Source of the DNA: a virus
Length of the DNA stretch: 16,611 nucleotides
Virus genome (UHGV): UHGV-0310400
Direction: 5' to 3' (one strand)
This document shows, piece by piece, positions 1 through 5,411 of this stretch. Under the pieces are notes generated by a model that was not told the DNA's origin, searched no databases, and saw only the letters and a program-made list of their open reading frames with translations. Each line of letters starts with the position of its first letter. Within the stretch, counting starts at the first letter, position 1. The position numbers were made by a program, and so were the translations under genes.

Positions 1-63
1 ACGGTTGATGAGGGCTTTATTGTAGGTGGGCCAGTTGGTGATTTTGAACTTTTGCTTTGCCAC
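1..63 (-). CDS. IS5-family (IS903-like) transposase, N-terminal fragment; partial, continues past the window start
   Basis: Minus-strand frame from a GTG at 63-61 translates as VAKQKFKITNWPTYNKALINR and stays open to position 1. This matches my recollection of the IS903 transposase N-terminus (..KQKFKITNW.TYNKALINRG..). Start codon choice is uncertain. Confidence 0.6.
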   Translation of the reverse strand, partial: MAKQKFKITNWPTYNKALINR

Positions 64-140
64 GGAACGGTCTGCGTTGTCGGGAAGATACGTGATCTGA
101 TCCTTCAACTCAGCAAAAGTTCGATTTATTCAACAAAGCC
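1..140 (-). mobile_element. Terminal segment of an IS903-group (IS5 family) insertion sequence; the element continues beyond the window start
   Basis: Minus-strand sequence reading inward from position 140 is GGCTTTGTTGAATAAATCGAACTTTTGCTGAGTTGAAGGATCAGATCACG..., which I recognise from memory as the IS903/Tn903 terminal inverted repeat and adjacent sequence, with a few substitutions. The outermost base of the inverted repeat is at 140. Not verified by alignment. Confidence 0.75.
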
Positions 141-1384
141 AAATCACCAGCAAATAATCCGTGATCAGTAATGCGAATATAAGCGACTTGCTGATTTGCT
201 GCTTTCGTTATACCACCATAAACGCGAAGGCTGCGACTCATTGGGCGATCCCACAACTCTGCAACCTGCAGTTTATTTCCTCTCACGGTCCGCGTCTCAA
301 TTACAGCAAAAAGGCGATTTCTGACAACCCCCATACTCATGCAGTGATAGTTAACTGTGGGATAGTTTTCATGTAAATCTGTAAGCCATTCCGGCGTTGT
401 CCAGGTCTTCCCGTCATCTCCTGAGCGAACCCATGCAACATGGAGGTTATTTACACCATGGCGGTCTCCAGCCATAAAAGGCGCATAGATGACATTGTCA
501 TATACAAACGTTTTATCCTGCGTCCAGGCGTTGTACCACGGTGTATCTGTAATTTTAAATAACTCTCCCTGGATAAAATCTTCAGAAGCATAAAAAAGAG
601 GCTGGCCCGGTATTCTCTCAAATAAAAAACGAGCATTTTTAAATCGACTGACATCCGGAAGAGTTGATACTTTAAAAGTAAGCCCTAATCCGTCAATTTT
701 ATAACCTGGAGATGAGGCTTCAAGGCACGCGCTTATTGCAGTGGAATCGTCATTTATACCATCACCAACAGCTCCAAAATCTTTGGGGCTAATAGCATCA
801 CGCATTTTATCCTGGAACGTTCGGTACACAGCCCCAGAACCATACTGAATAAACCAACCAAAACCACCAACAACTCCGGCGATTGCAGCATCGACATAAT
901 TACGCATTGAGCGATTATTTACAGCGTCCTGCTCAAATGATGGATCTGCAAGGTTAGAAATTTTGTTTTGCTTTGCATCGTAATATTTTGCAAGCAGAGA
1001 GGGCTTCATCAATGCACGTCTGAACCACCCAAAACATTGCTGGATCAGCATCGTCAGGTAGTCAAAGGCATCTTCATGCACTTCGGGGAAAAATTTTCCC
1101 TGATTGCGAAGGTCTGTGTCCTGCACTACATCAAGCACACGATCTATCGTAATTCGCCATCCAGTAGCAAGCGGAGACGGAAGAACCACAGAACCGCCAC
1201 TATAAGTGCCCGCCCCAGTTACCGTATAACCGGTATCCAGGACCAATTCTGTTACGTTCCCGTTCAGGTCAGACACCTGAACAACCAGGTCTGATTTTCT
1301 GAAAATTCGAAAAGTATACGGAAACGATGTCGTAACGCCGTTACCGGTGTATTCGTTGTGGTCAACTTCGGTTGAGACCGTCAT
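110..1384 (-). pseudogene. Tail fibre/tailspike gene (T7 gp17 position), 3' end truncated by IS insertion at 140/141; native sequence is 141-1384
   Basis: The 424-aa ORF has an N-terminal segment (EYTGNGVTTSFPYTF...VLDTGYTVTG...) resembling tail-attachment domains of podovirus fibres and tailspikes. It carries a DFGAVGDGINDDSTA motif (plus 758-781) typical of pectate-lyase-like beta-helix depolymerases, and an Asp-box-like SGDDGKTW (plus 401-424). The last 10 codons and the stop lie inside the IS inverted repeat (110-140). SD GGAG precedes the ATG at 1384. Confidence 0.6.
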
Positions 1385-1487
1385 GTTAAATCTCCAGATA
1401 GTCGCAGCACCCGTTGCGCCGCATATCTGGTTATTCTATTACCTGAAAAACCATATATGGATAAAAAGACTATAAATACCAATAGAT

Positions 1488-1504
1488 ATTACCTTTCGGG
1501 TAAT
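1488..1504. promoter_or_regulatory. 17-bp dyad operator-like site, copy 1 (ATTACC-TTTCG-GGTAAT)
   Basis: Perfect 6-bp inverted half-sites separated by 5 bp, in the divergent intergenic region between the tail fibre gene and the 85-aa gene. Same half-sites recur at 2608, 2701 and 3768. Confidence 0.5.
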
Positions 1505-1540: not shown

Positions 1541-1560
1541 TACTGTATAAACATACAGTT
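1541..1560. promoter_or_regulatory. LexA (SOS) box
   Basis: TACTGTATAAACATACAGTT: CTGT (1543-1546), 8-nt AT-rich spacer, ACAG (1555-1558). Matches the enterobacterial LexA consensus TACTGT-N8-ACAGTA. Lies about 20 bp upstream of the SD/ATG of the 1580 gene. Confidence 0.7.
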
Positions 1561-1844: not shown

Positions 1845-1860
1845 GGCCGCAAGAGCGGCC
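1845..1860. terminator. Bidirectional intrinsic terminator hairpin between convergent genes
   Basis: GGCCGC-AAGA-GCGGCC perfect 6-bp GC stem, flanked by AAATTTAAA upstream and TATCGTTTCGCTTT downstream. Sits between the stop of the 1580-1837 plus gene and the stop of the 1860-2588 minus gene. Confidence 0.6.
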
Positions 1861-2588
1861 TATCGTTTCGCTTTGTGCTCGTCCCAGCACGTTTTGCACC
1901 ATGCCATTAAGCCGTCCGCATTTTGATTATTAGGGTAAAAGCTGGTCCGTTTTCTGCGGACATTACAAATTGGGCACCACTTCATATGGCGTGTATTCTT
2001 TGGGCCATCGAGGCACCTTGCACACCACTTAGTCAATCCATCTGGATTTTTTGACGATTTCCGGAATTTGTCATATGGAAGGTTTATTCTGCATCGCAAA
2101 CACTGCTTGCGGCCACTTGAAACTCTGTTAGCTGATTCTTCTTTTGGCGGCGATACAGAAGGTATTCTTGCTGGCTCTGATACTGCCTGAGGTGCTTTTT
2201 TAGATGACTGAGACGATATGTCATCACCAGGGAATCTTCCATGATATGCCGGACGCGTTGACACTCCAGGTGGAAGCTCAGCTGTAAACGGCTTTGGCTG
2301 AATCAGTTGCCTCTCTTTTGCTAACTCCTGCTGTTTATAATATGTCTGGATTACCGCACTATCATAAGCAGGAGGTACGGAAATATCAGGCGCGTTACCT
2401 CCAGTTTTTTGAAACTGAGTAGATGTGTGTTCTATCACCTGTGTACGACTAATCGTTACCTCCCCATCTTCGGTCTTTATCGTTTTGTTCTGATTAACGA
2501 CCGTACGATCAGAGATCTTAGTCTTGTTCTGGTTGATAACGTAAATAATCACCGCAACCACACCAACAACTATCCAGAAAACTTCCAT
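1860..2588 (-). CDS. Membrane-anchored protein with N-terminal TM helix, Pro/Ser-rich linker and C-terminal tandem Cys4 zinc-ribbon-like repeats; function unknown
   Basis: 242-aa ORF. N-terminus FWIVVGVVAVIIYVI is hydrophobic. C-terminus has two repeats, CLRC-x22-WCARC and CPIC-x23-WCKTC, each with DGL just before the second Cys pair. Stop codon abuts the terminator hairpin. Confidence 0.6.
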   Translation of the reverse strand: MEVFWIVVGVVAVIIYVINQNKTKISDRTVVNQNKTIKTEDGEVTISRTQVIEHTSTQFQKTGGNAPDISVPPAYDSAVIQTYYKQQELAKERQLIQPKPFTAELPPGVSTRPAYHGRFPGDDISSQSSKKAPQAVSEPARIPSVSPPKEESANRVSSGRKQCLRCRINLPYDKFRKSSKNPDGLTKWCARCLDGPKNTRHMKWCPICNVRRKRTSFYPNNQNADGLMAWCKTCWDEHKAKR

Positions 2589-2607
2589 TGCTTTTCCTCA
2601 CAATAAC

Positions 2608-2624
2608 ATTACCTTAAAGGTAAT
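2608..2624. promoter_or_regulatory. 17-bp dyad operator-like site, copy 2 (ATTACC-TTAAA-GGTAAT)
   Basis: Perfect palindrome about 20 bp upstream of the 242-aa gene start (2588, minus), in the divergent region shared with the antirepressor leader. Confidence 0.5.
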
Positions 2625-2700
2625 ATCTTGCTTTCAGGTGATCAAGCGTTAAACGCAATCAACCAAATACGGTTGATTTTAATATTTCTTCGCGTTTATC

Positions 2701-2717
2701 ATTACCTTTGCGGTAAA
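2701..2717. promoter_or_regulatory. 17-bp dyad operator-like site, copy 3 (ATTACC-TTTGC-GGTAAA)
   Basis: Same half-sites, one mismatch in the right half. Located at the start of the long leader upstream of the Bro-N antirepressor gene. Confidence 0.45.
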
Positions 2718-2751
2718 TTTACATCGCACTCCTCTTGTGCCATAGTAATCG

Positions 2752-2829
2752 GGCACTGGCAAAATCCAGTGCCGGGATTGGCGTCCCGGGTTACTAAGTG
2801 GCGCATACCACGCCAGACGTGGTTTTTTT
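2752..2829 (+). promoter_or_regulatory. Structured leader upstream of the antirepressor gene: overlapping hairpins ending in a terminator-like stem plus T7 tract; candidate attenuator or small RNA
   Basis: Hairpin GGCACTGG-caaaat-CCAGTGCC (2752-2773) overlaps hairpin CCGGGA-ttggcg-TCCCGG (2772-2789). Then CCACG-ccaga-CGTGG (2808-2822) is followed by TTTTTTT (2823-2829). An alternative pairing TGGCG (2798-2802) with CGCCA (2811-2815) competes with the terminator stem. Confidence 0.35.
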
Positions 2830-2985
2830 ATGCGTTAAGCACAGCTATATCCGAATTATGGTGGGCTGGGCAGGGGTCCGAAAGGACGCCGGTACCACTT
2901 AGGCCGGTACGCCAACCTTGTCCAGTTCACCACCAGTAATTGGCGTTGCGGTGGTGATTAAAATCACTAAGTGGAGATAACCACC

Positions 2986-3696
2986 ATGGCTAATGCTCAA
3001 ACTTCCATCTTCAAATTTGAATCTGTTAACCCTATCCGTTCCATCATTATCGATGGCCAACCATGGTTTGTAGCCCAAGACGTTTGTAGTGCGCTGCGTA
3101 TCCAAAACGTCACCCAAGCACTTGAAAAACTGGATGATGATGAAAGGTCTATGTTCAACATAGGGCATGAACATCGTGCAATTTTTGACAGCCGAGTAAA
3201 AGAGATCAACATCATCTCCGAGTCAGGCCTCTACACACTGATCCTCCGCTGCCGCGACGCAGTGACACCAGGCACTATCCCCTACCGCTTTCGTAAATGG
3301 GTTACAGGTGAGGTTCTTCCTCAGATCCGCCGCACCGGAAGCTACATTAAAAACTCGCTCCCGCAGGAAGAACGCATAAAGATGGTTGCCGACCAGGTAG
3401 CCAACGCCACGGCGTCAGCAGTAATGCAGGCGATGAAGATAGAGAACAAAACCTACAGCGCCCCACTGAAGCCCGGCTACCGTAGCCTGATTCATTCGCC
3501 GTCTGGTGTTCTCGGCCTGACGGAGAACTCACTGCTGATGAATTTGCTGAACCAGTTGCAGGAAGACGGGCACGATGTATCGGGCGCGGCGGCGGAGCTG
3601 ACAACCATGTTTTGCTACATCGTTGGTGTGAGTAAATGCCTGCGTGATATCCAGACTCACGCGGAGTACATCAACGACAAAGCAGGATTCTTCTGA
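2986..3696 (+). CDS. Phage antirepressor with N-terminal Bro-N domain
   Basis: ATG at 2986 is preceded by GGAGA (2973-2977); the track ORF from 2971 uses an upstream GTG. N-terminus IFKFESVNPIRSIIIDGQPWFVAQDVCSALRIQN matches the Bro-N signature (F.F....IR....DG.PWF.A.DV...LG). C-terminal approximately 70 aa are paralogous to the 1580-1837 product. Confidence 0.8.
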   Translation: MANAQTSIFKFESVNPIRSIIIDGQPWFVAQDVCSALRIQNVTQALEKLDDDERSMFNIGHEHRAIFDSRVKEINIISESGLYTLILRCRDAVTPGTIPYRFRKWVTGEVLPQIRRTGSYIKNSLPQEERIKMVADQVANATASAVMQAMKIENKTYSAPLKPGYRSLIHSPSGVLGLTENSLLMNLLNQLQEDGHDVSGAAAELTTMFCYIVGVSKCLRDIQTHAEYINDKAGFF

Positions 3697-3704
3697 CGGG
3701 CGGC

Positions 3705-3730
3705 GGCACAGGGATGTGCCTTTAAATAAT
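3705..3730 (+). terminator. Intrinsic terminator downstream of the antirepressor gene
   Basis: GGCACA-ggga-TGTGCC stem-loop (3705-3720) followed by TTTAAATAATT. Confidence 0.45.
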
Positions 3731-3740
3731 TCTGTACAGA

Positions 3741-3769
3741 TTGCAGACCGGGGGTGAATAGCGTACTAT
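3741..3769 (+). promoter_or_regulatory. Sigma70-like promoter for the 3810-5411 operon
   Basis: TTGCAG (3741-3746), 17-bp spacer, TACTAT (3764-3769). The -10 element overlaps operator copy 4. Confidence 0.45.
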
Positions 3770-3784
3770 TACCTTAAAGGTAAA
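3768..3784. promoter_or_regulatory. 17-bp dyad operator-like site, copy 4 (ATTACC-TTAAA-GGTAAA)
   Basis: Identical to copy 2 over 16 of 17 bp. Overlaps the -10 and predicted transcription start of the cargo operon promoter. A second small inverted repeat CATGT-gttt-ACATG (3786-3799) follows. Confidence 0.5.
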
Positions 3785-3809
3785 CCATGTGTTTACATGA
3801 GGAGGAGAT

Positions 3810-4019
3810 ATGGGATTTTGGTTCGCTCGTACAAAAACGAGGGATAATGCACCCAGCCCTCAGGCAAAAAATACAGAAGTTCCGGCGTCAGCGCAGGTTA
3901 ACAAGCGTGGTGGTGTGTATATCTCATCACAGCAAATTTCTGAGCTTCCTGAGGTTAAGGAGATGCGTCGTCTCGCTGCTGCAATCGTTAAACAGGATCT
4001 TGCCACTGTAAGGAAATAG
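3810..4019 (+). CDS. Small (69 aa) hypothetical protein, first gene of the cargo operon
   Basis: Strong SD AGGAGG (3800-3805) 4 nt before the ATG at 3810. Stop TAG overlaps the GTG start of the next gene (TAGTG). Preferred over the alternative-frame ORF 3787-4011, which lacks an RBS. Confidence 0.5.
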   Translation: MGFWFARTKTRDNAPSPQAKNTEVPASAQVNKRGGVYISSQQISELPEVKEMRRLAAAIVKQDLATVRK

Positions 4020-4882
4020 TGTTGTTAGCTCTTCTAATTATCCCCATTCTGGTTAGTGGTTATATTATGATAACCGCTAACCAGTATCATTATTTCCGTT
4101 TATACCGACATGAAGGCCAGCTTCTTTATATGAAAGTAGCTGCATTAGGTACATATTGCCTTGTTGCTTCTGTAATAATTGCCGCATTTATAAAATATAA
4201 ATATCCTGATTTTCACCTAGTTCACGATATGGTGGAAACTTTTAATGTAACGTCAAAACCAGAAACAGATAGAATTTACATGTGGCTACTTCTTCTGTCA
4301 GTCACATCAATTTGCTTCTCTTTGTGTTATGTATCTTTTGTTTGGCTAAAAGATCTTCTTTTAGGTTGTTTTTATAAACGTGATATTTATGACAAAATAT
4401 CAGAGGCAATGAAAGCTAGGGTATTGCGAAAAACGTACTCCCAGGGTTCTTTAGATTTGCTATTGCTTGATGCAATCGAATCAGATCCTAAGAAACCAAT
4501 GTTAATTACTTTATCATCAAATAAAGTATACGTTGGAATAATAAATGGTTCTGGTGAGCCAACGGAAAATCAAGGGCCACACCAACACATATCTTTTGTT
4601 CCTTTAATGTCAGGGTACAGAAACAAAGAAAATTTATCTGTTACATTTACAAACGCTTACCCAGGTGAAATCCAAATTAAGCGCAGTGCTGCGATAAAAG
4701 GGATAAGCAAAAAGAAAGTTCAAGGTCTAGAAATTATGGTATCTATAGACGAAATAAGTCATATATCATGGTTTGACTTTGAAGTATATAAGGCAACAAA
4801 TAACAAAGTAGAAACAAAGGGTCATGTTGTTAATGTGACCAAAAATGGTCGCAACATATACTACAGAAGTGGCAGGAAATAA
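4019..4882 (+). CDS. Multi-pass membrane protein (about 3 TM helices) with a soluble C-terminal domain of roughly 170 aa; AT-rich cargo gene of unknown function
   Basis: 287-aa ORF. Hydrophobic segments LLALLIIPILVSGYIMI, MKVAALGTYCLVASVIIAAFI and YMWLLLLSVTSICFSLCYVSFVWL. Base composition is visibly more AT-rich than the flanking virion genes. GTG start is coupled to the upstream stop; an internal ATG at 4067 is an alternative. Confidence 0.65.
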   Translation: MLLALLIIPILVSGYIMITANQYHYFRLYRHEGQLLYMKVAALGTYCLVASVIIAAFIKYKYPDFHLVHDMVETFNVTSKPETDRIYMWLLLLSVTSICFSLCYVSFVWLKDLLLGCFYKRDIYDKISEAMKARVLRKTYSQGSLDLLLLDAIESDPKKPMLITLSSNKVYVGIINGSGEPTENQGPHQHISFVPLMSGYRNKENLSVTFTNAYPGEIQIKRSAAIKGISKKKVQGLEIMVSIDEISHISWFDFEVYKATNNKVETKGHVVNVTKNGRNIYYRSGRK

Positions 4883-4907
4883 ATTTTACGCAGTTTAGGT
4901 GGCTTAT

Positions 4908-5411
4908 ATGGATAATACTATCTTAGGCGCATTGATAGGTGCTGTTATTGCTATAGTTTCCACTTATATAAATGCAGGACAAGGATACAAAAACAGCATA
5001 AGATTAGAGCGACAAAAAATATTAAGGGATAAACGCGAGCAATTATTTATAAATTGTATACTTACTAAAAAAGTCATAGATTCAAGCACAATTACCATTC
5101 TCAATTTCGTAAAAAATGCCAGATACCACTCTGATAGTAAATTTGACGTATCAAGAGCGAATCCGTTGCAAACGATGGAAATGCTAATAAACATATACCT
5201 TCCTGAGTATAAAAAAGACTTACAAGAACTCAATAATGCGTATCAAGAATTTCACAAATACTACTCTCAATATACATGTGCACATACCTTCAAAAATATG
5301 CCTGATAATGAGAAGTCGAGGTTTATTGAGGAGGCTGATTTTTATGCAAAAAAGATATATGGCAAACTTAATGATATTAAGGACAAGATATCATTAAACT
5401 CAATAGTATAA
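4908..5411 (+). CDS. Single-pass membrane protein (N-terminal TM helix plus soluble domain of about 140 aa); AT-rich cargo gene of unknown function
   Basis: ATG at 4908 with SD AGGTGG (4897-4902); the track ORF starts at an upstream GTG at 4899. N-terminus NTILGALIGAVIAIVSTYI is hydrophobic. Very AT-rich. Followed by a GC-rich palindrome and the terminator at 5496-5513. Confidence 0.6.
   Translation: MDNTILGALIGAVIAIVSTYINAGQGYKNSIRLERQKILRDKREQLFINCILTKKVIDSSTITILNFVKNARYHSDSKFDVSRANPLQTMEMLINIYLPEYKKDLQELNNAYQEFHKYYSQYTCAHTFKNMPDNEKSRFIEEADFYAKKIYGKLNDIKDKISLNSIV

Follow-up and report, generated by a model that had tools for sequence, protein, structure and literature searches.

The window analysed here, a stretch of 16,611 nucleotides of viral DNA (UHGV virus genome UHGV-0310400), begins with one end of an insertion sequence (IS), which is followed directly by the 5' part of a tailspike gene and, further to the right, by a small antirepressor gene, a variable accessory block and the virion genes of a prophage (Table 1). 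To judge from these genes, the prophage is a phiV10/epsilon15-like temperate podophage (Uetakevirus) of E. coli that is integrated beside yfgI, and its virion genes share 96-98% nucleotide identity with those of phages EC.W1-9, TL-2011b, phiV10 and phiv142-3. The virion proteins encoded in the window (283, 1129, 915, 191, 154 and 823 aa) have the same lengths as those of the isolated phage EC.W1-9, as do the lysis proteins (134, 102, 209 and 160 aa) encoded on a second contig from the same assembly (k141_106000, here L005), and these virion and lysis gene lengths recur in many other copies. No other damage was apparent in the 21 kb seen (window plus L005), which make up part of the prophage. 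When the 823-aa virion protein was looked up, it was matched only in samples other than the source assembly.

Table 1. Coordinates of the IS903B ends, the interrupted tailspike gene with its domains, and neighbouring genes. Positions are those of the window unless L005 or residues of the intact protein are given.
Feature	Position	Strand	Basis or remark
IS903B left (IRL) end	1..140	-	140/140 identity to annotated IS903B copies
18-bp IS903B terminal inverted repeat GGCTTTGTTGAATAAATC	123..140	-	Read directly from sequence
9-bp target-site duplication copy AAATCACCA (TGGTGATTT in gene orientation)	141..149	.	Second copy at L005 118-126
Truncated ORF, 424 aa (414 native residues + LALLNKSNFC + TGA)	110..1384	-	ORF translation; longest ORF in 1-1384
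Native tailspike 5' part, 1244 nt (40% of 3120 nt)	141..1384	-	100% identity to CUVET20-PYO2, 99.4% to vB_EcoP_ZX5
N-terminal virion-attachment (adaptor) domain, residues 1-204	773..1384	-	Dpo31 match; fully retained
End_N_terminal (PF12218), residues 205-271	572..772	-	Pfam; retained
Catalytic beta-propeller (PF12217), residues 272-383	236..571	-	Pfam; first 112/367 profile positions
Beta-barrel insert (PF12195)	141..238	-	Pfam; first 34/83 profile positions, IS inside domain
242-aa ORF	In accessory block 1860-5411	-	Weak zinc-finger/endonuclease VII-like matches
BRO-N antirepressor	2971-3696		Accessory block
69-aa ORF	In accessory block 1860-5411
287-aa ORF	4019-4882		Accessory block
170-aa ORF	4899-5411		Accessory block
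IS903B right end	L005 1-117		116/117 identity to reference copy
TGGTGATTT, reverse complement of window 141-149	L005 118-126		Perfect 9-bp target duplication
Remaining 3' part of tailspike gene	L005 127-2002
Two holin genes, GH19 endolysin, DUF2514 gene, prophage end, yfgI	L005, downstream of 2002
End_N_terminal	Residues 205-271 of intact protein		Pfam
End_beta_propel	Residues 272-721 of intact protein		Pfam
End_beta_barrel, inserted in propeller	Residues 383-465 of intact protein		Pfam
End_tail_spike (stalk)	Residues 722-876 of intact protein		Pfam
Peptidase_S74 chaperone	Residues 877-937 of intact protein		Pfam

Results

The first 140 bases of the window were identical to the left end of IS903B, a sequence that recurs in thousands of E. 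coli entries with the annotation 'IS5-like element IS903B family transposase'. The transposase of this element is read in the same orientation as the interrupted tailspike gene, and its start is either the RefSeq-annotated TTG at window 108 or the classical GTG at window 63. The 18-bp repeat GGCTTTGTTGAATAAATC that closes this end of the element also bounds the opposite end of the reference IS903B (the complete 1057-bp copy in pCP53-mcr), in inverted orientation, and recurs at positions 100-117 of L005. When window 1-1500 was compared by megablast with 5,426 complete E. coli genomes, all 72 genomes that carry the gene aligned from base 141 and none aligned across 140/141, and an IS at this tailspike site was found in none of the 5,426. 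Exact scans with the 35-nt junction (window 126-160) found no copy in the GTDB representative genomes or in JGI metagenome contigs. The 9-bp target sequence occurs once in the uninterrupted gene of E. coli CUVET20-PYO2 (L001 6001-6009), and a 9-bp direct repeat has been reported for IS903B insertions (PMC9769513). The element thus has the end identity, the 18-bp inverted repeats and the 9-bp target-site duplication of IS903B. A sequence-only reading of the window had proposed that an IS903-group element interrupts a fibre or tailspike gene at 140/141, and both parts of this proposal held: the element is IS903B, a member of the IS903 group of the IS5 family, and homology to the gene begins at exactly base 141 in every gene-carrying genome.

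The interrupted reading frame starts at the native ATG at 1384. Codon 415 spans the junction and is changed from F to L, and nine codons that lie entirely within the IS (ALLNKSNFC) follow before the TGA at 112..110, so that the frame stops ten codons past the junction, as the same reading had stated. That reading had also placed an Asp-box about 100 residues before the truncation; the first Asp-box, SGDDGKTW (residues 321-328, window 401-424), was found 94 residues ahead of the break. The exact 424-aa product is recorded on three ENA contigs. The tail-attachment domain is recognisable from a match of residues 1-209 to domain 1 of Dpo31, a Klebsiella phage tailspike in the PDB (E value 1e-36). 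The stump retains this domain together with about a third of the beta-propeller, including His309 (the equivalent of K1F H350; window 458-460). The break costs the product 625 of 1039 residues (60%). Among these are four of its five key catalytic residues, the greater part of the beta-barrel, the entire trimeric stalk and the intramolecular chaperone domain at the C terminus. The distal enzymatic part is therefore incomplete, as had been suspected, and the loss is larger than the distal tip.

The intact gene comprises 3120 nt (1039 codons) in eight of the nine complete E. coli genomes inspected (IAI39, GN02050, AREA_486, BEN5202, EC67, SF-468, F11 and B20123). It runs to the same length in the viable phage vB_EcoP_ZX5, which disposes of the possibility, raised in the sequence-only reading, that the gene ends naturally at the junction. 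The orthologue is labelled in RefSeq as 'endosialidase catalytic beta-propeller domain-containing protein', and all five Pfam families of the endosialidase tailspike scored well above cut-off in the intact orthologue, in the expected domain order. The crystallised core of K1F endoNF aligns over its full length with residues 205-876 of the intact protein (E = 0). The key catalytic residues of the K1F endosialidase, H350, R549, E581, R596 and R647 (PMC12632334), align to H309, R515, E547, R562 and R613 of the intact protein, and only H309 precedes the break. By its domain content, the interrupted gene is an endosialidase tailspike (GH58; K1F endoNF type) that is predicted to degrade K1 polysialic acid.

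The complete genome closest to the window, that of CUVET20-PYO2, is 100% identical to window 141-1500. Its tailspike gene (L001 4126-7244) is independently inactivated by a 1-nt deletion near codon 735 and is annotated as a frameshifted pseudogene.

The window is identical (100% over at least 11,384 bases) to the ENA contig ERZ27267874:k141_22946, and both end at the same base. The k141 in the contig name marks a MEGAHIT assembly with k = 141, for which 140 is k-1. Since the contig runs exactly k-1 = 140 nt into a multicopy repeat and then stops, the window starts where the assembly broke and not at a biological end. For the far side of the element, the allele expected from a simple insertion was built from the complete IS903B and the intact gene, and the predicted downstream ORFs were looked up by exact sequence, with three alternative start codons for each allele, the intact and the CUVET20-frameshifted one. 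The only predicted downstream product on record was a 608-aa product with a GTG start from the intact allele, and its ORF sits on the 4,560-nt contig L005 from assembly ERZ27267874, which also contains the contig identical to the window. In a homology search with the C-terminal 624 residues, the downstream fragment did not stand out as a cluster of its own; it was hidden in a cluster of 3,581 members headed by a CUS-3-type protein, in which the 'partial' members are mostly contig-end fragments.

As listed in Table 1, L005 opens with the right end of IS903B, continues with a perfect second copy of the 9-bp target sequence and then carries the rest of the tailspike gene. Joining window 1384..141 to L005 127-2002 yields a 3120-nt ORF of 1039 codons with no internal stop, and the reconstructed tailspike gene differs from that of IAI39 by 4 nt and its product by one residue. 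A displaced 3' end beyond the IS and a 9-bp target-site duplication were two of the marks by which the sequence-only reading had proposed to recognise the insertion, and both were recovered from this assembly. The 3' part of the gene is not lost from the genome, only separated from the 5' part by the IS. The two junctions lie on separate short-read contigs, and from these we infer the ~800 nt in the middle of the IS as well as the adjacency of the gene halves.

The two contigs break within IS903B at 140 nt (window) and 117 nt (L005) from the element ends, and because both break inside the IS, the sample holds at least two IS903B copies. An A/G difference from the IS903B reference copy was seen at L005 position 37. 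Directly 3' of the tailspike stop, L005 2003-2030 forms a hairpin, GCCCGCAAAATATTGCGGG, with an A-run before it. A T-run accompanies this hairpin on the opposite strand only, and it would serve as an intrinsic terminator for that strand only. An AT-rich gap of 306 nt lies between the hairpin and the first holin gene, and promoter-like matches in this gap were no better than chance. These features were considered with a view to a possible polar effect of the IS on the lysis genes.

We compared the gene with those of known phages. The temperate phage vB_EcoP_ZX5 (MW722083.1, QTH80017.1), described in PMC9782041 and classified as Uetakevirus, has a tailspike gene with 99.4% DNA identity over all 1244 native bases and with the same neighbours, an 85-aa gene upstream and holin genes downstream; this phage is viable and its gene is unbroken (3120 nt, 1039 aa), whereas the gene in the window is split by IS903B. 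The siaK1 gene of CUS-3, a P22-like prophage of E. coli K1 RS218 (CP000711.1), shows 99.3% DNA identity over window 141-686, and the C-terminal 624 residues share 98% protein identity with a 981-aa CUS-3-type protein. The two proteins differ at the N terminus, where the 981-aa CUS-3 protein has a P22-type head-binding domain (PF09008) and the 1039-aa protein described here has a phiV10-type adaptor (residues 1 to ~200). K1F endoNF (PDB 1V0E, 3GVL and 3JU4; chaperone domain 3GW6) has the same catalytic fold, domain order and conserved catalytic residues, but it comes from a T7-like lytic phage and has another N-terminal adaptor, and the product of the interrupted gene reaches only to the position that corresponds to K1F residue ~455.

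Window 803-1384 (residues 1-194) is common, at 98-99%, to phiV10-like phages with unrelated receptor-binding modules (phiv142-3, and EC.W1-9 with its 'eliminase'), and the siaK1-like part of the tailspike begins at about residue 233. The tailspike is a mosaic, and by these comparisons its endosialidase module has evidently moved between two different phage chassis, one P22-like and one phiV10-like. Hundreds of 'partial' endosialidase or 'peptidase S74' entries are present in public databases, several of them on contigs that are exactly fragment-sized, and the end of one Logan contig (L024) falls near window ~626, where the stretch in common with CUS-3 has its edge. These 'partial' entries look like assembly breaks in strains that carry both CUS-3-type and phiV10-type endosialidase genes, and not like real truncations.

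Upstream of the tailspike gene, window 1541-1559 carries TACTGTATAAACATACAGT, a perfect LexA/SOS-box-like palindrome of the form CTGT-N8-ACAG, of which 0.02 copies would be expected by chance. The palindrome precedes by 39 nt the ATG of an 85-aa ORF (1580-1837, + strand), a member of phrog_450, to which the C-terminal half of the neighbouring BRO-N/Ant antirepressor also belongs. In each of the 11 related loci with this region, including those of the viable phages EC.W1-9 and vB_EcoP_ZX5, the box is conserved at an unchanged distance. This arrangement suggests a LexA-controlled small antirepressor as a putative induction switch. Comparable LexA-controlled induction is known for Tum of coliphage 186 and for the Gifsy phages. 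Between the tailspike and the virion genes lies the variable accessory block, window 1860-5411. Neither its 287-aa ORF nor its 170-aa ORF gave a PADLOC hit or a significant Pfam hit, the 170-aa product having one match below the curated cut-off. The closest complete genome has other genes in place of 3813-5411, and in other relatives the accessory block holds YafO toxin, DUF2335 or DUF4760 genes.

Discussion

Taken together, the two junctions and the reconstructed gene indicate that IS903B very probably entered the endosialidase tailspike gene (1039 codons) by transposition at codon 415 and thereby disabled the spike of this prophage. A single hop of the element into the tailspike gene of a phiV10/epsilon15-like prophage adjoining yfgI would have left the typical 9-bp target duplication. 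IS903B is the only lesion in the gene, and when the IS and one copy of the repeat are removed the full ORF is restored; since no other lesion is present, the insertion is probably recent.

The way in which the contigs end bears on whether every prophage copy in the sample carries the insertion. Interrupted and intact alleles might coexist in the sampled population, part of which could then still make functional phage, and this is conceivable in that the ENA assembly comes from a metagenome assembler, so that mixed strains are possible, and in that the intact allele is common in E. coli. Two abundant alleles, however, would branch the assembly graph at 140/141 and end the contig there. The contig instead runs the full k-1 into the IS, and the far-side contig also continues into the element, as judged from the behaviour of de Bruijn assemblers, and we therefore consider coexistence unlikely. 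It is very unlikely, too, that recombination between two IS903B copies inverted or translocated the DNA and left the gene halves at different chromosomal places. The sample does hold at least two copies of the element, the gene halves lie on separate contigs without a physical link in the data, and IS-mediated rearrangements are common; yet the perfect 9-bp duplication at both ends, oriented as for one element, is the signature of a simple insertion, and the far-side contig leads on into the usual lysis cassette and yfgI, the arrangement of uninterrupted prophages. An assembly chimera formed at a repeat, with the gene really intact, would account for a window that starts exactly k-1 = 140 nt into a multicopy repeat at a MEGAHIT contig end and for the lack of an IS at this site in all 5,426 complete E. 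coli genomes, but the independent second junction and its exact duplication effectively exclude it: this is a complementary junction on another contig of the same sample, which a chance misjoin would not give. The chimera is further opposed by the identical 424-aa product on three contigs and by the fact that a de Bruijn contig crosses a junction only if the reads contain that junction.

Under simple transposition of IS903B, the consequences for the phage can be predicted from what is known of endosialidases. The C-terminal domain of the enzyme is required for proper folding (PMC12632334). With the chaperone domain needed for trimer folding, the stump should stay unassembled and be unable to cleave polysialic acid; loss of this cleavage is predicted for the 424-aa product from the domains that it lacks. 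Particles formed after induction would have no working spikes and would fail to adsorb to K1-encapsulated cells or to bind and get through their polysialic acid capsule, an adsorption defect that we infer from known endosialidase biology (K1F endoNF). The 608-aa downstream ORF could not substitute, even if expressed, because it lacks an adaptor domain and includes just two thirds of the propeller. The prophage would then persist only vertically, and its spike might be recovered through rare precise excision of the IS across the 9-bp repeats or through recombination with a homologous endosialidase gene, such as siaK1 of CUS-3.

Inactivation of genes by IS903B has been described before. In Klebsiella, the element inactivates wcaJ and wbaZ, splitting the coding sequence with a 9-bp direct repeat (PMC9769513), and inactivation of cirA by IS903B has also been reported (PMC13618097). 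Those cases differ from the present one in that the targets were bacterial genes whose loss was selected (phage or drug resistance), whereas here the target is a virion gene of a prophage. Both IS903B and the Uetakevirus-type endosialidase tailspike (vB_EcoP_ZX5) were already known, and the insertion described here is only a new allele. IS disruption of prophage genes is a routine form of decay, and this case is ordinary, recent prophage decay. We regard it as highly doubtful that the insertion is selected domestication and not neutral decay. If it were, cells induced spontaneously would no longer release enzyme or particles that strip or attack the K1 capsule of clonal neighbours, the remainder of the prophage (lysis cassette, morons and the LexA-controlled antirepressor module) would be kept, and the frameshift in CUVET20-PYO2 would be a second instance; yet eight of the nine complete genomes inspected keep the gene intact.

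For annotation, the insertion means that gene callers would report two 'partial' tailspike proteins from one gene, and that in depolymerase mining the intact enzyme would be recoverable by joining the two contigs and dropping the IS together with one 9-bp repeat. A window that begins inside an IS is also a reminder of an assembly break. Beyond annotation the case carries little significance: a single IS903B hop very probably disabled, and recently, this copy of a K1-specific phiV10-like prophage.
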